Source of the DNA: Lingula anatina
Taxonomy: Eukaryota > Animalia > Brachiopoda
Direction of reading: 5' to 3'
DNA length: 64,000 nucleotides
NCBI GenBank assembly: GCA_051362555.1
Contig: CM120642.1
Span: 24,366,001-24,430,000, forward strand
Shown here: in pieces, positions 33,924 through 47,000 of the stretch
Position numbering within the stretch: position 1 is the stretch's first letter
Layout of the letters: every line of letters begins with the position of its first letter
Made by a program: the position numbers and the translations under genes
The notes under the pieces: generated by a model
What the model was told of the DNA's origin: nothing
Databases searched by the model: none
Seen by the model: only the letters and a program-made list of their open reading frames with translations

Positions 33924-36900
33924 CTATTCCACAGTCTGCTCGGTGCGGCACTTTTTGTCCACCTTTTTGAGGCCCAACCAGGTGTTGAGTTTGTTAGCGC
34001 GTAGACGGGACCAGATTAAGTGGTCGTGAAGGGACATAATCTGCGCAGCCATCAAACCTGCAGCCTCAGGAGATATCACTGTTGAACAGCCAAGACCTGA
34101 AATGGAAAATTTAAAGAAGAAAGTTACTATCACAAATATTATTTGGCAAAGCATTTTTCCAAAAATGAATAAATGGTACATTTCGCACTATGACCTATTA
34201 AGAACAGAGTACAAGGGGTAAAGGAAGGACGCTTCTCTGTATATGTTTCAAATCCTATCGCAGAAAATTTAAAACAAGAATTTCTTAATTGCAAAAATCT
34301 CTCTAGACTTTCTTTACACATCAAAAGGAGGAAAAGGAGGAAACCCTAAAGGGAAAAATATTCCCCCTACCCCCCCCCAAACTTAAGTATTTAACTTTAT
34401 AGATACAGAATATAATCAATCAGAAAATCAAATAAAGCTCACAAATATAGAAGTAATACAGATAAAGTATAAATAAATATTACTCTAATGTCAATTTCAA
34501 CTTTAAGGGAATAATGTTCCTTGTAAAAGTATAACTTACCAGAAGGCAGCCTCAAAGATGACCAAACATCTTCATTCCCCCAGTCTGCCTTAATGGGTGG
34601 GCAGTTGATGACCGGCCAGCTGGCATTGCCAGACAAGACTGGACCAAGACCATTGCTTCTGCCAGCCACTGCTATAAACACAGTGGGGATATTTTCACCT
34701 GAAATGTGACATTTGTGAAGTGTAATTTATGTACTTTAAAATTAGAGACGTAGCCCATTTACTCCTAATTGACTAAGTATGGACATTTTCATCTTTCATT
34801 CCACAATAAGCAGTACTAAAATAGGTTATTGAATGTTTTTTCCACAGGACCAAAAATTACGATCAAAATTATAATATTCTGACACATTAAACCAAAATAT
34901 TTTTTAAGATTTTTCACTTTGAAAAATCAACTAGACATGCATAATTGATGAAGTCAAATCAAGGAAATGAAACAAAGTTGTTACATTTCATTACAACTAA
35001 TTTCTATACTTAAGTCAAACAAATTTGCACAATGACCCCAAACTAAATTTAACCAAACTACATTACCTTCATATTGAGCCAAAATGTTCAAGGTCTCATC
35101 TGTCCCTTTGTGAGCAGAGGACACCCTCATCTCACATGGGAGACCATATTTTTGACAAGTTTCAGCTATCTTCTGACTAAAGGCAAAATCCGAGGGAGAA
35201 CCCATAAAGACCACTGCTCTGCAGTTTGGCTTTGGGGTCAAATGCTAAAAATATTAAAGCAAATGTCAAAACTGAGTGATTTTACTAAAAAGACATATCT
35301 CTGTACAATACTCCAAAGGATGGGATGATTGTTCAATCTGCCTTATGAAAAATCCTGAATCAAATATGCTATTGAAATGAGTTCAATTTATATATCAAAT
35401 CATTTCTACTGTATTTTGTTTGGGTATCTGTATGAAAGATAATTTCTTTCAAATAACAAGTCACTGTAAAAGACACTGATATAATATGACTGTCCAATAT
35501 AAAATTTATTAAGTATCAAGTTGAACTCAAATGCTTAATATCATGGTGAATTCAAATCGTGTTAATGAACATTGTTTTTAGAAGTTCAAATTAACAGATT
35601 AATTTGAACTTAACCCAAGAATTCCACCTACGTCCAATCTTTCTGCCACCCACTCAAAGTTTCTCTTCACTAATGCCAGTCCCTCCTCTGTGACCTCTGC
35701 CATGTCTCTGTACACCTGCTTGTCCTTCATCAGGCGTTTGTCACCAGAGGGCCACAGCCGCCAGGAGTCGCTGTCAATTATGTCAGCCAAGACAATCTCA
35801 CCTGATTTACAGGATTGAAAATAAAGTGTATGACAAATGCTAGTTTAATTTGAAGAAAATGATTTGGCTAATATTCTTCAAAAAATGTCTTGTTTATTAT
35901 ACAAGTACATAATGATTTATTATTCTGAAAAGTGAGTCGACTTCATATCAGGAGCCTGTATGCAAGCAACAAAATATATATTGTGTGGGTACCTAACAAA
36001 TTTGTATACATTTCAACAATGCTTTCTACACAGGTCAAAATTTTATCCTGGCTATGACTGTGAATTCATACCCTTGTTATTGACCCCAAACTCTATCTTC
36101 ATATCAATCAGGCTGCAATCCAGTGTTGCCCAGGCTTTCTCCAAGATCTCAAACACACAAACGGTCACCTTGGACATCATGTCCACCTCGTCTGGACCTA
36201 TGAGGAGGCCACCATGGGTCATCTTGCTCTCGAGGATCTGTTCCCTTGACCACTGTGGGTCTCCAGCAGCATCGTCCTAGAAAATAGGCTCGACCTTTAA
36301 ATCTTTGGGAACTATGATAATTAAGTAAAACAACATATGGTAGAACTCCAGATAGAAGCATATTAATTATTATCTGAATGACCTTTATGGTTCAAATTAC
36401 GACTATATCAAATGCATGCCCTATTTTTATTATTTTTTAGCAAATTAAAAACCAGGATATTTTACATAATGTATATATACATATTTCAGAAAAAGAGGTG
36501 AGAGATATCTTATCGAGGACAGTGTATTTTTGTAAATGTTTGAAAATAGATGCTTTTTTAGTTTGTTTCCAAACTAATTTTTTTTAATTTCAAAAATGAA
36601 TAAATAAATAAAAATTTTAAAAAAATGTTTAAAAACCATGCATACTTTATAAAACATTTCAAGTTTAGGAGGACAGAACCTATAGCCCTCAGTGACTCCG
36701 GGGTTACGTTTGAGGAAGGACCCCGTGGCGACTCTCCTGGTGACCCACTCTATAGGGATCATGTCACATGCTTCGGCAATAAAAGCTGTATCACTGTGTT
36801 GCTTGATGAAGTGGGACTTAACACCTGAAAAAAACATTTAACTTTTAATAAGGGAGATATTATAATATAATATATATATATATATATATATATTGTAAAA

Positions 36901-39693
36901 TATGTGTTTAATTCAGTATGGAAAAGGGCTCTACCCATGGTAGCTGGGAAGCTTATAGAGAAAGAGAAAAATGAACTAAATCAGTCTGTTTAATCTATGT
37001 TTATGCCCTACAGCTGTTATGACCGGAGGCCTTATCAGGAGCACAAGCTATTACATGGCTATGTTTTTACAGATCTGTTTGTGCCCCTGATGAAGCCTCT
37101 GGGTTGAAATGGCTGTAGGGAACAATAAATATGGAACAAACAGACGGAACAAATATCACCAGAACAGTTATTGTCACCATAACACAGTGACATGATGCAT
37201 AATTTCTGAATCAATGCTTTTTGTTTCTCAGGCATCTCAATGTGGCTCAGACTTCAAACTATCTAGACAATTTATTCTACTTTGGTTAGTTAAATTTTAA
37301 AAAAATCTTTCATAGGTTTCACTGGGAGTCAGAAATGATCATTTAAACTGACAAAAACACTCGACAACAAAAATCATATGCTGCCCTTACCAGCAATAGC
37401 CAGTAACTCAAACACCTTAGCAGCAGTTGCCGTGGATACAATAGCTTTTCCTTTCATCTCATGTTGCCTAGCAGCATTTCCTGCCGTGATCTTGTCCTTT
37501 GATTGTAGTAGCACTTTGCCTGGTTGTGAGGTAATCTCATACACGATCTTGGTCTTCCCCTCATTAAGCTGTTTGCCAAGCTTAACTGTATCTGCAAAAT
37601 AAAAATTGTTGGGAAAAACTGTACAAATGCCAAATATATGAATAAGTAAGAATTTTGTGAGAAACAAAAATTTACATTTTAATCTTGGCTTAATGGATTG
37701 AAATAATAGATCAAAAGCAAAATATGGCCAAACATTGGGACTTGTGTAATATCACCTCCAACATTCACCTACATGGACCCTCAAACTTCTTATAGTTTTG
37801 ATCTCTGGCCTTTTCACATTGATGTTGTATTTTTTTTTTTTTTTTTTTTTTCAGTCTTTGAAATTGTTTTGAGGGTTTTTTCCTTTCATTCAATTGGGTA
37901 ACAAAGACTATAACAAACAATTTTTTAAAATAATGAAAATAAAAACTTTGTACACACAGAAGAAAAAATGACAAACAAATATCTGTTTTGGCTTCCAATC
38001 TTTTTTATTAGCATGTTCACAAAATGGTCAAAGATGTGGACAAAAAACAAATTTTTTCTCTGTACTTTCATTTTTGATCTGTGAACAAAATTAACTCCGT
38101 GCATATTGAATCCATGTCATGAGCAAGGAGTAGGAATCAACAGTTCGCACTCATTAGTTAGATGCTGTATGGGAATATTTTGTCCTTCTGGAGAGCGCAC
38201 ATGATAGTATTCACTCATGTATGTACATATTCTCCAAAAGCAGTCTTGCAGCAAGAAAGATAGCAAAATACAACTTGATGTCTCCCTCAGAGCTTTCACT
38301 GGATATAGTCAGCCATAGTCAATTACATGATAACACCATACTAGAATGTGCACCATGGCCTTACTTAAGACACTATGATAGGCAGAAAAGCAGATAATTA
38401 AAAAAGAAATACTATGTGATGCCTGGTGTGTGTGTGTGTGTGTGTCTGTGTCTGGGGGGGGGGGGGGGGGGGGGGGGGGTGGATACTGTAAAAGTTTCCA
38501 GTCTCCTAGAGTTCTGTGAGAGTACTAGTACAATACATAAATAACATTAATCCCTGCACCTTAAGGCTGCATGCATACTTGAAGTTGAAACTTAATGAGG
38601 AAAGTGTTAATATTTCAATCAAATTTTGGACCTACCAGGTATTGCACTTTGACTATACGGAATACCTTTGTCTGCATCTGGCTCTGATTTTAAGAGACAA
38701 ATAGGTGAAACACTATATGGACGTGAGCCCAATATTCTGTCCAGTTGTTCAAAGTGCTCACATCTTAATCTTCCCTGTGTTCTGACACTGAAATATAGTA
38801 AAATATACAATATTATTCAGGGTGGGGGATTACGAAAACAGATCAACTATGTATTATATACATTTAAACTTCTGGATACACTAAAGGTGAGGGTGTCGGC
38901 ACATTATAAGTAACAATTAAATCACACACATCAAACAAGAGAGAGAGAGAGAGAGAGAGAAACTTAATTACCTGTGGCTGCTCTTGCCAAGCACTTTGGT
39001 TTTCCTGTACAAGAACTTCAGCTTCTTGATTTTGGCACGACATGCCTCTGGGGTCTTGTGCACCCCGTGTTCCGTTTGTAGTCGGTCAGAAATCCGCTTA
39101 AACACATGGATATTCCTCTTTGGGTCACTCTTTAACTGTTCTTGTATGGGGTCATCGCCCCAAACACTGATGAGACTGTTGATTTGATTATGACTCCACC
39201 AAAATCCTCCTTCTGACGCCGCCATCGTATGTATACACGATGCGCTCGTATTTTAAACTGAGGGGTGAGGCGTATAATTTCTGATCCACTATTAGTACTA
39301 AATCTGCTAGACAAAGAAGAGGTACCGTTTCCGCCCCGAGAGCCCGCATGTACAAGCCTAAATGTACTGGCCGTGTTAACGAGCTGAGAGATCGTCTTAC
39401 ATAATAGGCGGGCTATTAAGCTGTCAATGTTTTAAAACATAACGCTGAAGACTGCACGCTAAAAATAGAACGTTCCACGTGAGGTGGCCTTTTTGTGAAT
39501 CGACCGTCCAGACACATGAGAATTAATGAACTTCAGCGCCACCTGTCGGGTGTCTGGAAATCATGACCTTATACTGACCCTTGTACGTAACCGATTTTTT
39601 GTGTCAATTAACAGTGAAAGGTGTCCCAATTATAATTACTTTTCAATAATTTTAAAAAGAATTAAAACATGCCTTACCTGTTTTTTCAGACAT
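33924..39693 (-). CDS. PAICS: Bifunctional SAICAR synthetase / AIR carboxylase (de novo purine synthesis)
   Basis: Exons in transcript order: 39693-39678 (ATG TCT GAA AAA ACA G|gtaagg), 37591-37391, 36824-36646, 36276-36072, 35801-35632, 35244-35067, 34698-34540, 34096-33924 (TAG). Motifs [87 protein letters not shown]. Confidence 0.97.
37003..37129. ncRNA. Inverted pair of degenerate minimal type-I hammerhead ribozyme motifs (Penelope-like element remnant)
   Basis: Plus copy: gtgccc-CTGATGA-agcc(tctg)ggtt-GAAA-tggctg-TA-gggaac then AATAAA (37081-37129). Minus copy (37044-37003): gtgctc-CTGATAA-ggcc(tcc)ggtc-ATAA-cagctg-TA-gggcat. Confidence 0.65.
38619..39225 (-). CDS. Myb/SANT-like (trihelix, Myb_DNA-bind_4 type) DNA-binding domain protein nested in PAICS intron 1
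   Basis: Exon A 39225-38972 ([77 protein letters not shown]..., donor ag|gtaatt, phase 2) joins exon B from 38787 (ttcag|) in frame: [24 protein letters not shown]. The pattern W..LI.VW..RN..VF..IS..L..G..KT..CR.KIK.LK..Y..C.(H)F..LD.IL is typical of MSANTD/ZSCAN29/Harbinger ORF1 domains. The 3' end is uncertain (stop at 38619 if unspliced). Confidence 0.8.
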
Positions 39694-40249
39694 TTTGGAC
39701 GGCTCAATTATGGCTGTATATCCTGTTGTTTATTTGCCGCAACACGCTTGAAAGGTCGAGTTGGAAATTTCCACGATTTCGAAATAAACCACCGGATTAT
39801 GTAAAAATCTGTATTTTCTTATCGTAGCTCTAAAGTCGTTTTTGATGCAACAGATCAGCAATTTTTGCGCCGTTGTAGTCGAAAGTGCACTCAATAACAG
39901 GAGTGGGTCTCAACCACGTGCGTCTGAAAGAGGTCAGTGGGAACGTCGGGCTAGTCCAAGTTAAGGGGTGATGGGTTTGAAATCTACGACGTAAACAAAA
40001 CCATTTGAAACAAACAAGTAATATTTGGAATTTATTGATTCCATAAAATACAACAGTTTATCTTATTTGGTTTACAAAAGTAAAAAAGATCAGTATGGGG
40101 ATGTTTTGTTTGCGGTTTTGTCATCATCAATTTAATCCTTTTCCCCCTAATGCTTCTCCGAAAAAGTCCATGTGCTTTCCAAACAAGATGAATGAAAAGG
40201 AAAGCTAACACAAGCTCTCGCTGGTTGTATTGTACGATCTGATATTTGA
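39694..40249. promoter_or_regulatory. Bidirectional PAICS/PPAT promoter region
   Basis: 556 bp between divergent ATGs, CpG-enriched. CACGTG E-box at 39915-39920, a second one at 39476-39481 in PAICS intron 1, and an E2F-consensus TTTGCCGC at 39733-39740. Confidence 0.8.
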
Positions 40250-40969
40250 ATGGCGGAGGCAGAGGGTCTGCAAGAGGCTTGTGGGGTATTTGGCGTGGTG
40301 GCGGGCGGTGAATGGCCGACAACGCTTGATGTGGCTCACACGACGGCGTTTGCTCTTGTGGGTCTTCAACATCGGTGAGTTTTCATTACAGACTACAGTG
40401 ATTTGGCGATGTCAGCCAGTGTGATTTTTATTGTATAAATTATAGAAAGTGCTGTGATCTAATTGCTTTAAACCCTTGATTTGTTTAAATGGAAGTTTAT
40501 TCGTTAACGCCTGATTAAAGTTCCATATAGATCATAAGTGACGTTGGCTTCACTTAATCTATGAATTTTTAATCTATGATTTTATTTACCACGCGCGCGT
40601 TGATAAGAAAGTGAATAATATTAATAATTAAAATGATAATAATAATTGTCAGGAGTGTATGTGTAGGGACAAGGAGTGGTGACCTTAAAGTTTTTACAAT
40701 AAATAAAATTAAGAATTAACAAGCCTCTGCGGTGCAAGGTACCCCCCCTCCCCCCCCAGACTCGTATTTTGTTCTATCCCAATCCCAATATCAAGACAAA
40801 TTAACACACAGCAGGTGCGTCAGGTCACCTTGGTGATTTCTCTCCTACTAGTACATTGTAAGGCACCATTACCTTTTAATTGCGATGGCCACACTGCTGT
40901 TATAGTATATCAGTCCTAATTTCTTCTCCTTTGTTAAGTCTGTCTCATCATATCCGGGTTTACAATTAA

Positions 40970-41058
<89 letters not shown>

Positions 41059-44000
41059 TACAAATCACAGTATTTCCTGTTATTGATCTGGGGAGAAGTG
41101 ATTGGGCTCATTAAAATCTGCCATTCTTGTTATTATGATAAGTAATATTGAACTCAGTAACTGATATAGTTGTGATTTTTTAAAAGCTGTCATTGAAAAA
41201 ATATCACATGAGATTTTTGGTAAAATTGAAAACAAAAAAGAAAATTGCATTTCAAATGCCAAGAAAGCTTCTAAAAGTAAGCAATATTCAAAGCTGCATT
41301 TGTGATTGTTTTTTAGTCAGTAAGTGTGGTGACCTTCTATATTTTAGCTACAATACATGATGTTTATTGCTACAGGAGAAAAACATTAGCTTGTTTTCAT
41401 AGCATTACTTTATGTCATTCATTTGAAAGGATGGATTTCCACTTATATTTCAAAGTCCATCTAAAGAAGAAGAGTTAACAGTGCCCCCATGTTAATCCAA
41501 AACAATGCCTGAAATGTTGTCCAGTTTTTTTCTTTAATGGCATCAGGGATAATCACATTTTTTCCTGGCCTTAGATATACTAGATATGACAGTTGTGTTG
41601 CCAGACATCATTGGTGGACTAAGTATTTTACACCTATATATTTTTTCAGTTTTGATCATTAAATTTTTTCTTCAAATAGCAGGCACTATATAAACTTATT
41701 AACTTTATTTGTTTTTTCTACCCAGGTAAGATTACCTAATTTGTATTAATTATATATCTGATCATAGAAGTAGAGAAATGAAATCCTGTCTACAACATTT
41801 CTGAAATAATTTCTTTCACAGTGGTCAAGAAAGTGCAGGCATTGTGACCAGCTATGGAGATGACCCCCACAAAATTTTCTGCCACAAGGAGATGGGACTG
41901 GTCAACACAGTGTTTGATGACCATGCGCTGTCCAGACTGAAGGGCAATCTGGCCATTGGTACGTTGGTGCATGTGTCTTCTGTTACTGTATCACATTTTT
42001 TATGTCAACAAAAGCTCCATACTAAACACCAATAAAATAAAAGCAGAGCCATTAATATTGTGTTAACTTGTTTCTGCTTTAGTTCAGTAATTTTTTGGAC
42101 CCTGCCTTGGTGGACAAACTTTAGATCAGTAGCCTTAATATCAGTTTGATGTACTTTTTTGTTTGTTTGTTTGATTTTGCTTTTGTCTGATAACTTAATT
42201 GCTTTCATCAATTCAATATTGCATTTTAAAATAGCTGTTCATGAAATAAACTATACTAGATTTTCCTTCTTCACCATGGCAAATTTTGTTTAGAATTTGC
42301 TACAAAAATAATATGTGATAGCTGAAGAAAATACTTTTTATATGAAAATAGTATGTAAAAAAAAACTCATGAATGAATGCCTGGTTTTAGTCTATTTTAT
42401 AATTATTTAAAACCAATGTTCAAAGTACATGAGGCAAAGTACACGAAAAGCTTACATATTCAGCATGATCAGTCTACAAAAGATACATAAAGATATAAAT
42501 ATTTTTCCCTCCAGTTACATAAATATCATAAGCTCTGTCATCCAAAGGTTGCATCAACACCTGGTATTGGAACTTTTGTTTTGTTTTTTGTTTTGTTTTG
42601 TTTTTCGGACAAGAGGTTCATTTCTAACTGCACTGTAGAAGCTTTTGAATAAGTCAAAGTTCTTCTATCTGTCCATCTGCCTGTCCATCTATCCATTTCT
42701 CCCTTTATTCCCAATTTGCATCTTGTAACATAAGTTATGAAAATATATATCGCCCTCCATAACATTTGTAGTATGTGAGTAAAACAATAAAAAATATTAT
42801 ATTCCAGGTCACACACGCTACTCCACAGCCGGGGGCTCTCAGCTGGTCAACTGTCAGCCATTTGTAGTGGACACAATGCATGGTTTGATTGCTGTGGCCC
42901 ACAACGGAGAACTGGTCAATGCTAAAATGCTCAGGGAAAAGGTACATATTACTTTCATTCTTTTAGTTGATTATTTTTTAAAGTGGAAGAAATTAGAAAA
43001 GTAATAATTTCTTGTGTTTTGTCAAGACTCATTATTCACACTGTTTGTTTGTTTGTTTGTTTCACACTGTCAAAGTGCAGTTTTAATAAAATGCTGACAA
43101 CAATCTATCTCTCCACTTAAAAAAGTGACAACCAAACCAGGATGCAAGTATAAATGCTTAAATTATACATTCCTGTAAATTAACAAACTCACAGATTTTT
43201 TTACATGTATGCAGACAGCACCAATTTGCATTATAATGCATTCACAGTACTGGCAAAACTGAAACAAATTGTTTTTCTTTGCAGGTCTTACAGAGAGGAG
43301 TTGGTCTGTCCACTAAGTCTGACAGTGAGTTGATGACACAGTTGCTTTGTTTATCACCTCCAGAGAGTGAAGAAAGTGGGCCTGATTGGCCTGCAAGGTA
43401 AAGATTGTGTTAGATGTTCTTTGACAAGTGTTGAAATGCGTTGGGTAAATGAGGTCAAACAAGCAGTTTTTCTTTTCATTTTCTTTTTTATGTACAGACA
43501 CAGATGTGTCTGTACATATTGCCATCACCTGCGTCTGTCGTCGCCGATGGCGATGCCGATGGCGATGCCGATGACGATGCCGATGGCGATGCTGGCGCCG
43601 TGCACTTTCCTTGTAAACACGATAAGTGGAGGGCAGTTTTACTTTTTGGCTTTATATTTACAGAGCTGATGAATATTCATAAAACGCAGGTCAAGTTCGA
43701 AAATCAGCATGATCGGGCCATTATTGTAGAAGTTATGCTGTTTTTTCACTTTTCAGCATATTTTTCACATTTCCTCAGATTCAATTCTTAGGCATATTAA
43801 CAGTCTCATTATTAAACTAATAAGATACGTAAAAGTTTTTGTTTGACATTTCCTGCATCTTTACAACATTGTTAGTTGATTTTGTAAAAGTGATGGTAAA
43901 CTTGTTATCGTGTATTGTGTAATAAAGTTTCAAAAATGGAAATAAACTCATATCATTGCAGTTTGTCAGATTCAATCATTCACTATGTTCAGAATCTCAG

Positions 44001-47000
44001 AATGGAAGAAATTGGACATTTAACACTGCTCTATTGATATTTTTCCCATCTCATCAATTTTCTTAGTTGATCATATAAAAATGGCAGTAAACTGTTAATT
44101 TTGTTTTATGTTAAAAATTGTTAAAAATGGAAAAAAAAAACATTTTAGAACAGTGCTGTCTTGTTTACATTTTGGCATTTTCAAGTTGTGACTTTGAAGT
44201 TCCATGGGCCTGAAGACCTTTGCTAGTCAAATTTTCTGAATATCCATGATACTAATATTTTATTATTAAAAATTGATGGTCATTATGATGTTAAACATTA
44301 TGTAATATTGCATCAAAATTTGAAAAAAAACTATTTTGGGCACTGCTCCCATGATGACCATTTAAGAAAAACCATGTCACTTACTGTTCTCAAACAGTAC
44401 AGTAAATATATATAGATGTGTCTGTACATATTGCCATCACCTGCGTCTGTCGTCCCCGTCATCGCCGGTGCCGGCGCCGTGCACTTTCATTGTAAACACG
44501 ATAAGTGGAAGGCAGTTTTACTTTTTGGCTTTATATTTACAGAGCTGATGAATATTCATAAAACGCAGGTCAAGTTTGAAAATCAGCATGATCGGGCCAT
44601 TATTGTAGAAGTTATGCTTTATTTTTCACTTTTCAGCATATATGCAACACTGTAAACACTTTCCAAGGAAAACCATAGGCCTGTTGTCATGAAACTCACA
44701 GGAGTAATCTATCTTACTAAAACGCAGGTCAAGTTAGAAAATCGGCATGATCAGTCCACTATTTTAGTAGTTATGCTTTTTTTTCACTTTTCAGCATATA
44801 TGCAACACTGTAAACACAATATAAGAAAAACAGATAGGCCAATTGTCATTAAACTCACAGGAGTGGTCAATAGGCCAATTGTCATTAAACTCACAGGAGT
44901 GGTCAATCCTGCTAAAACACAGGTTGAGTTAAAAGATCAGCATAATCGGGCCATTATTTTAGAAGTTATGTTGTTTTTTCACATTTCCTCAGATTCAATT
45001 CTTAGGCATGTTAACAGTTTCATTGTTTAATTAATAAGATATTAAAAGTGTTTGTTTGACATTCCCTGCATCTTTACAACATTGTTAGTTGATTTTGTAA
45101 AAATGATGGTTAAATTGTTATCGTGTATTGTGTAATAAAGTTTCAAAAATGGAAATAAACTTATATCATTGCAGTTTGTCAGATTCAATCATTCACTATG
45201 TTCAGAATCTCAGAATGGAAGAAATTGGACATTTAACACTGCTCTATTGATATTTTTCCCATCTCATCAATTTTTTTAGTTGATTATATAAAAATAGCAG
45301 TAAACTGTTAATTTTGTTTTATGTTTAAAAATGTTAAAAATGGAAAAAAAGCGTTTCAGAACAGTGCTGTCTTGTTTACATTTTGGCATTTTCAAGTTGT
45401 GACTTTTAAGTTCCATGGGCCTGAAGACCTTTGCTAGTCACATTTTCTGAATATCCATGATACTAATATTTTATTATTAAAAATTGATGGTCATTATGCT
45501 GTTAAACATTATGTAATATTGCATCAAAATTTGAAAAAACCTATTTTGGGCACTGCTCCCATGATGACCATTTAAGAAAAACCATGTCACTTACTGTTCT
45601 CAAACTTACAGGAAAGAAACATGGGACTAAAATATAGCTTCAGTAGGCAATGCAATCTGCCAGTTAAACAGTTTTTTTTTTTTTTTTTTTGTGAAAATTT
45701 AATTTTTTCACATTTTTACATTTTCAAGGTGTGACTTTTAAGTTCCACAGCTTGAAGACCCATGCTAGTCACATTTTCTGAAAATCCATGATACGTATAT
45801 TTCATTATTAAAATTTGACGGTCATTATGCTGTTAACCATTATGTAATATTGCATCAGAATAGAAGAATACACAATTTTGGGTGCTGCTGCTATGATGAC
45901 CATTATGGGAAAACCATGTTTCTTATGATTGCCAAATGTTCAAAACAGAAACACAGGACTAAAATGCAGCCTGAGTTGAAAAAGCAGTCTAATTGTCTTC
46001 TTTTTCTGGAAGTTTTACATTTTCAAAGGGTGAACTTGAACTCCCATGGGCCTGAAGCCTTATGTTTGTAACACATTTTACTTACATTGGTATTACCTGT
46101 TGAGCATAATTAAAATTTGATGTTGAATTTGCAGTTTAACATAATGTACTTTTGCATCAGAATTGACAGTAGCCTATTTTATTTCCTGCTTTTTTAGGTG
46201 ATCATATAAAAATGGCAGTAAACTTTTAATTTTGTTTTATGTAAAAAAAAAAATTGTTAAAAATGGGGGGAAAAAACATTTCAGAACAGTGCTGTCTTGT
46301 TTACATTTTAGCATTTTCAAGTTGTGACTTTGAAGTACCATGGGCCTGAAGACCTTTTCTAGTCACATTTTCTGAATATCCATGATACTAATATTTTATT
46401 ATTAAAAATTGATGGTCATTATGCTGTTAACCATTATGTAATATTGCATCAGAATAGAAGAAAACACAATTTTGGGTGCTGCTGCCATGATGACCATTAT
46501 GGGAAAACCATGTTACTTATGATTGCCAAACTTTCAAAAAAGAAATACAGGACTAAAATGCAGCTGGAGTTGGAAAAGCAGTCTAATTGACTTCTTTTTC
46601 TGGAAGTTATACATTTTCAAAGTGTGAACTTGAACTCCCATGGGCCTTATGCTTGTTACACATTTTACTTACATTGGTTTTACCTGTTAAGCACAATTAA
46701 AATTTGATGTTGAATTTGCAGTTTAACATAATGTACTTTTGCATCAGAATTGACAGTAGCCTATTTTGTTATTTCCTGCTTTTTGTCTGTACATTTGACA
46801 GCTTTGCTGCCTTGTACTTAAATTCTTTTCCTACAGATAATTGTAATATAATGAAATATTGAATAAGCACCAGCCAAGCTGAATAATCTCTAGCTTTTTA
46901 TAGTGAAACTTCAAGGTGTGCTCAAAATCATTGGAAAGAGTTATATTATGCTTGGATATTGCATTTTTCTTTAATATCTTTTGATATATTTTTGTTTGTC

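Follow-up and report, generated by a model that had tools for sequence, protein, structure and literature searches.

The PAICS locus and a Myb/SANT-PAICS transcript in Lingula

The segment of the Lingula anatina genome described here (the window; 64,000 nt of contig CM120642.1) contains the purine synthesis gene PAICS on its minus strand, arranged head-to-head with PPAT such that 557 nt separate the two ATG codons (Table 1). Within the first PAICS intron there are two exons, A and B, which encode a Myb/SANT-like domain of likely Harbinger transposon origin, and RNA reads join these in frame to PAICS exon 2, giving a long isoform in which the domain precedes the complete enzyme. An isoform of this kind had been proposed in a preliminary description of the window, whose coordinates and phases for exons A and B, the native start exon and PAICS exon 2 are all correct, as is its assignment to exon A of an ATG with an in-frame stop upstream. 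The proposed fusion is spliced in RNA and its product equals RefSeq predicted isoform X1 at all but one residue; the five native residues MSEKT are replaced by 135 in the long form, and the enzyme is left whole.

RNA reads from four of nine raw runs labelled as Lingula were mapped on positions 38500-38920 of the window, of which X1 and X3 are polyA RNA from two samples of one study. They contribute 48 and 37 reads respectively (3.9 and 3.1 per million records), all from minus-strand RNA, with depth confined to exon B apart from a few reads (depth 1-5) that pass the donor at 38636. Both of the junctions for which the preliminary description suggested looking in RNA are present in both polyA runs. 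The exon A-exon B junction is represented by loose read ends at 38790 (20 reads in X1 and 13 in X3) that are identical to the end of exon A over 30 positions, and the exon B-PAICS exon 2 junction by loose ends at 38636 and 38638 (12 + 6 = 18 reads in X1, 15 + 4 = 19 in X3), which differ from the start of exon 2 at 2 and 1 of 30 positions; the next-best sites in the window have 9 and 11 mismatches. The reads across this second junction come from two alleles, one of which carries the T7A change of a second RefSeq PAICS locus (P0003). The two other runs, X4 (no reads) and X7 (one read), are no test of the transcript, the organism being unconfirmed in both by any other stretch.

The preliminary description noted two phase-1 GT donors in exon B, at 38666 and 38636, and from either one the reading frame stays open into exon 2, although only 38636 is used in the RNA. 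The alternative of 38666 as the main donor was rejected: it is in frame, yet no loose read end is listed there and depth continues across it. Because nine of the 15 GT sites listed between 38800 and 38560 are phase 1, phase agreement is by itself a weak argument. At 38636, splicing is about four to six times as frequent as run-through (18 reads against a depth of about 5, and 19 against 3), and no downstream partner of exon B other than PAICS exon 2 is listed among the RNA loose ends. The run-through reads contain four differences from the window within 38593-38601 and have a loose end at 38575; the segment 38575-38635 may be the intron of another haplotype, either unspliced or used as a minor 3' end.

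A query with exon A has a single match among 25 candidates, XP_013410133.1 (P0001), with 100% identity. This 556-residue L. anatina protein is annotated as 'multifunctional protein ADE2 isoform X1' and contains PF13837, PF01259 and PF00731. It uses exon A, exon B to the donor at 38636, and exon 2, exactly as in the fusion described here, and its sequence agrees with the window apart from one residue (T119 vs S); it is however an automatic prediction and its name ignores the Myb domain. Residues 136-556 of P0001 are the same as residues 6-426 of the short isoform P0002, so that SAICAR synthetase and AIR carboxylase are both whole in the long form, and human PAICS (2h31) matches it over residues 135-550 (E value 1.3e-182). 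RefSeq contains two Lingula PAICS loci, P0002 and P0003, with differences at 2 of 426 residues, and most of the junction reads are of the P0003 type; the two are probably haplotypes.

The CpG-rich stretch upstream of exon A, judged by its base composition, likely represents a separate promoter or the 5' untranslated region of the long isoform. Elsewhere in the window, the PPAT introns contain near-identical blocks that recur within 43300-46600, likely a tandem or dispersed repeat; open reading frame (ORF) text at 43453-43791 matches that at 44416-44655, and there are further blocks at 44227-44415, 45769-46071 and 46363-46590.

Table 1. Features of the PAICS/PPAT region, in window coordinates.
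Feature	Position	Strand	Evidence and remarks
PPAT (amidophosphoribosyltransferase), first coding exon	40250..40376	+	Translation; PDB amidophosphoribosyltransferase, E value 2.8e-9; GATase_6 in a later exon
Putative shared PPAT/PAICS promoter region	39694..40249	.	CpG observed/expected 1.09; lies between both ATGs
Native PAICS start exon, short isoform X2	39678..39693	-	16 nt coding (MSEKT + 1 nt), phase-1 donor; P0002 = XP_013410134.1
CpG-rich stretch upstream of exon A	39226..39677	-	452 nt; CpG observed/expected 1.19 vs 0.10 later in the intron; 6 ATGs
Exon A: ATG and helices of the Myb/SANT-like (trihelix) domain	38972..39225	-	254 nt, ends in phase 2; in-frame stop 5' of ATG; 3' end seen in exon B reads
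Exon B: end of the Myb/SANT-like domain and linker of ~25 residues	38636..38787	-	152 nt; RNA depth ~12-32 in X1/X3; aligns to Harbinger Myb proteins
Minor run-through beyond donor 38636	38575..38635	-	RNA depth 1-5; would encode a 140-residue Myb-only product, or is unspliced RNA
PAICS exon 2: acceptor common to both isoforms; SAICAR synthetase domain begins	37391..37591	-	Phase check, profile match, RNA junctions
Other PAICS coding exons, six blocks (approximate ends)	33924..36824	-	tblastn of P0001/P0002; SAICAR synthetase and AIR carboxylase

The Myb/SANT-like domain and its Harbinger relatives

Exon A encodes a Myb/SANT-like domain, as the preliminary description had it, matching profile PF13837 at 52.8 bits (cut-off 27; E value 5.5e-14) over positions 3-72 of 89, and the rest aligns in exon B. 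The predicted structure of the exon A product (predicted local distance difference test score 81.9) has a long helix at residues 59-81, and its best fold match is the trihelix domain of GT-1 (2jmw; Z 10.8, root-mean-square deviation 2.1, 76 aligned residues), which is also the only match in a sequence search of the PDB (E value 0.24). Residues W10, W22, C62, K65, K67, L69 and Y73 are conserved and the Lingula domain is basic (pI ~10). The model has the trihelix fold of a Myb/SANT-like domain, with a conserved aromatic core and a basic last helix.

A homologue search over 1.84 billion representatives yielded 767 proteins at E ≤ 0.001, the best 150 of which were listed. The nearest single-domain relatives among these are mostly proteins from ENA assemblies, in which the Myb domain is followed by an acidic linker, a basic patch and a charged tail. 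An alignment of the single-domain relatives identified 11 related metagenome loci (12 of 46 long ORFs were scanned), and in two of these, L001 (670-2755) and L009 (196-3669), the Myb ORF faces a DDE_Tnp_4 transposase ORF. Harbinger elements have this two-gene plan of a Myb gene and a transposase (PMC9392472), and because relatives of the cassette adjoin a DDE_Tnp_4 transposase, the PIF/Harbinger origin suggested in the preliminary description is supported. The L001 Myb ORF is related to the Lingula cassette across both exons (36% identity to exon A, 39% to exon B, with a range of 36-41% across both exons). The cassette stops at the point where the L001 acidic linker starts and corresponds to the first half of the Harbinger Myb protein; unlike L001 it has no facing DDE_Tnp_4, acidic linker, basic patch or charged tail.

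No transposase was found in the window by tblastn with two Harbinger transposases (best E value 0.81), none of 33 intron ORFs matches a transposase family, and there is no second copy of the cassette within the window. There are 27 inverted pairs in 37500-40300; the 25 listed are short or of low complexity, and none of these makes a convincing terminal inverted repeat, although decayed ends could escape such a search. The preliminary description had held that its proposal would be refuted if no reads joined exon B to PAICS exon 2 while other 3' ends were well supported, or if the exons were unexpressed, multi-copy within intact Harbinger elements and evolving neutrally; the exons are expressed and joined to exon 2, and have neither transposase nor terminal repeats nearby. 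From these comparisons the cassette is likely a domesticated Myb/SANT gene of a Harbinger transposon, reduced to its front half.

Acquisition of a Harbinger Myb domain by a host gene is an already known kind of event (TSNARE1; MSANTD1-4, NAIF1). MSANTD1-4 and NAIF1, together with the proposed cases MYPOP, ZSCAN20 and PRDM11, have domesticated Harbinger Myb-like domains, but are stand-alone or regulatory proteins, unlike the PAICS fusion (PMC9392472). TSNARE1 is closer, in that a Harbinger Myb-like domain has been acquired on a SNARE with isoform-dependent inclusion, and the major isoform that contains it enters the nucleus (bioRxiv 10.1101/2021.02.09.430442); its partner however acts in trafficking rather than in core metabolism, and it represents one vertebrate event. 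The lungfish ACCS-like protein XP_043938093.1 (P0289) is likewise predicted to carry a Myb/SANT domain ahead of an enzyme, although the enzyme family differs and its Myb domains fall in a separate clade. With its relative P0303, in which an N-terminal Myb/SANT domain is also joined to an aminotransferase class I/II, it represents a second Myb-on-enzyme architecture.

The literature search found no description of a PAICS-Myb/SANT fusion (subscription papers and bioRxiv supplements lay outside it) and nothing relevant on Lingula Harbinger elements. Neither PAICS nor ADE2 appears in the main text and one supplement of the main paper on domesticated Harbinger Myb genes (PMC9392472), and 'Myb' does not occur in the available part of a review of purine synthesis (PMC10912719). 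The statement in the preliminary description that no such fusion had been described therefore holds for the literature searched, but not for databases, in which automatic annotation exists for Lingula and for many vertebrates. The fusion is thus real, expressed and annotated, and apparently unstudied.

Predicted Myb/SANT-PAICS proteins in bony vertebrates

Proteins with both Myb/SANT and SAICAR synthetase domains, for which a search had been suggested in the preliminary description, include the RefSeq Lingula isoform and many vertebrate models. In a search with P0001, Myb/SANT and both PAICS domains occur together in 103 of the 119 further proteins listed (the best 120 of 1556, 305-973 residues), and likewise in all 120 listed among longer proteins (the best 120 of 260), although these counts are not frequencies because the ranking favors fusions. 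The named carriers include cats, cattle, New World monkeys, chicken, crocodile, turtles, a snake, caecilians, a frog, lungfish, coelacanth and teleosts, and the ESM Atlas contains four Myb-PAICS clusters of 58-130 members each in which Chordata are commonest. The 16 unfused hits among those listed are plain PAICS of the invertebrate type, with Owenia, Ptychodera, Glandiceps and four bivalves named.

The long vertebrate proteins (for example chicken XP_040554691.1, cat XP_019685025.2 and coelacanth XP_064422471.1) resemble the Lingula isoform in having Myb/SANT sequences N-terminal to a whole PAICS and a short isoform alongside. They differ in having 2-4 repeats and long linkers, with lengths of 759 to more than 1400 residues, whereas the 556-residue Lingula protein has a single domain; they also keep the native start methionine, and their Myb repeats form a separate clade. 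Between cat and coelacanth the enzyme is 80% identical and the repeats are 68-79% identical, against 31% for a linker; the repeats are nearly as conserved as the enzyme, and this pattern points to purifying selection on the vertebrate Myb repeats.

There are also Myb-only models of the vertebrate PAICS-linked cassette (P0129, P0147, P0185, P0155 and P0159), from seal ('trihelix transcription factor GT-2'), cat, capuchin and tilapia, of which the capuchin model ends shortly after the PAICS junction of the fused forms. In the 585-residue model P0128 the last Myb repeat before PAICS is only partial, a hint that the cassette has decayed in some lineage.

The two fusions differ in their relation to the native start exon. 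The start methionine is present 14-18 residues before the EGKTK motif in 219 of 223 vertebrate fusion models compared with 172 of 892 background windows, as counted in protein sequences rather than vertebrate DNA, whereas the Lingula long form replaces the start methionine of the short form. Because the start methionine is kept, the vertebrate Myb exons should lie upstream of the start exon; those of Lingula are downstream of it. Human PPAT and PAICS are 70 bp apart (PMC2871058), and with this spacing the vertebrate Myb exons are probably inside PPAT, on the opposite strand.

A tree of 103 Myb domains was constructed from 22 vertebrate PAICS repeats (nine proteins, with weak degenerate repeats omitted), 80 others and the Lingula domain. 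The vertebrate repeats together with six apparent Myb-only rows of the same locus form a clade (100/97) that does not include Lingula, whose own position is unsupported. In a tree of the enzyme core (29 of 240 rows kept after removal of near-copies) every fused row except Lingula falls in one clade with support of 100. Many long proteins (P0192-P0194, P0199-P0201 and others) contain TINF2_N and up to eight Myb/SANT repeats, often with C2H2 fingers, and a subset of these repeats is sister to those of vertebrate PAICS (97/85).

Origins and alternative interpretations

Taken together, we somewhat favor the interpretation that Myb exons, likely domesticated from a Harbinger element, were joined to PAICS in Lingula so as to produce a predicted 556-residue enzyme that would be carried to the nucleus and onto DNA, and that a vertebrate fusion was gained separately and kept by selection. 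Several observations weigh against it. Both positive RNA runs come from one study, with reads placed on exon B only; the Z score of 10.8 is middling for a small helical domain and under the safe level of the tool; and the vertebrate fusions are all predicted gene models, with Myb-only forms occurring there too. With regard to separate origins, 38 of the 349 domains outscore every vertebrate PAICS repeat, but these domains were picked for likeness to the Lingula domain, and an approximately unbiased (AU) test does not reject a single clade of Lingula and vertebrate repeats (p 0.30). This test result is compatible with an ancient bilaterian Myb/SANT gene at PPAT-PAICS that fused once, persisted in Lingula and bony vertebrates, changed sides of the start exon in one of the two, and was lost or left unannotated elsewhere. 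The domain family, the host gene and the end of the enzyme are the same in both groups, the identity of 33-37% fits a long divergence, and two chance insertions at one gene look unlikely. Such a history would nonetheless require many losses, and the free Harbinger-type proteins are nearer to the Lingula domain (46-48%); no further non-vertebrate fusion is present among the 240 listed hits, where one would rank at the top. The cassettes lie on opposite sides of the start exon, and two captures are therefore more likely than one; we regard two as reasonably probable, and the ancient single fusion in the form given here as unlikely.

The function of the Lingula domain is subject to other readings. 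The Myb exons could be a young and tolerated transposon remnant that brings a promoter and splices to the next acceptor, adding a harmless head or merely shifting the enzyme between nucleus and cytoplasm, with no sequence-specific role at DNA. A phase match is easily obtained, no close relative of the domain was found in other species (the one match among 25 candidates is the protein itself), and the allelic differences in Lingula exon B (two synonymous and one amino-acid) are too few for a selection test. There is also a possible precedent in tSNARE1, whose Myb domain had no effect on the function tested and is allowed by the authors to be a relic (bioRxiv 10.1101/2021.02.09.430442). A mere remnant is harder to reconcile with the loss of transposase, terminal repeats and C-terminal half alike, with the clean intron dividing the domain where the L001 ORF is uninterrupted, and with the dominance of a single donor and the frame kept in both alleles; the vertebrate counterpart, moreover, is strongly conserved. 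We consider a simple relic improbable, though less so than a third reading, in which a small, separate Myb protein encoded within the intron is what functions, with the PAICS join arising by read-through. The reads passing the donor and the Myb-only models of seal, cat, capuchin and tilapia would fit such a protein, but it would stop five residues past the donor, the spliced Lingula reads outnumber those that run through, and exon B has no other listed partner downstream; we think it very unlikely.

Proposed role of the long isoform

PAICS, an octamer, has been studied intensively both as a housekeeping enzyme and as a cancer target, and is treated as a cytosolic protein of 425 residues. In the interpretation we favor, that of a captured and working domain, the long isoform would have a transcription start of its own, downstream of the native start exon and upstream of exon A, and its transcript would be translated into the predicted 556-residue enzyme with a DNA-binding-type head. 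By analogy with the Harbinger Myb proteins, which bind DNA and mediate nuclear import, as does NAIF1 (PMC9392472), and with the Myb-bearing isoform tSNARE1c, which enters the nucleus (bioRxiv 10.1101/2021.02.09.430442), the basic trihelix may provide both nuclear import and DNA binding. The octamer could substitute for the charged C-terminal tail of the transposon protein, which is absent from the cassette, and several DNA-binding heads would be displayed, whether long subunits assemble only with each other or together with short ones. Synthesis or sensing of SAICAR and CAIR would thereby be placed at chosen DNA sites. Bony vertebrates most likely gained a similar fusion independently, with the Myb exons placed before rather than after the start exon, and selection has maintained it.

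A bolder version, which we advance tentatively and hold to be rather doubtful, is that PAICS acquired a DNA-binding domain from Harbinger elements on two occasions, once in a brachiopod and once at the base of the bony vertebrates, and that the long isoform is an overlooked, sequence-specific and multivalent nuclear PAICS, a transcription factor-enzyme making or sensing SAICAR/CAIR at chosen genes and conserved from fish to monkeys. The main interest is in the parallel, conserved isoform predicted in vertebrates, which is newly noted here.

If the two fusions are separate, they constitute a rare convergent capture of transposon sequences by one host gene, and if there was a single fusion, then an ancient isoform has been overlooked. 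A PAICS spliced to a DNA-binding-type head, seen in RNA in Lingula and predicted in bony vertebrates, would provide a hard-wired route to chromatin for a purine enzyme, and the question of nuclear purine metabolism becomes directly testable through the Myb exons of PAICS.

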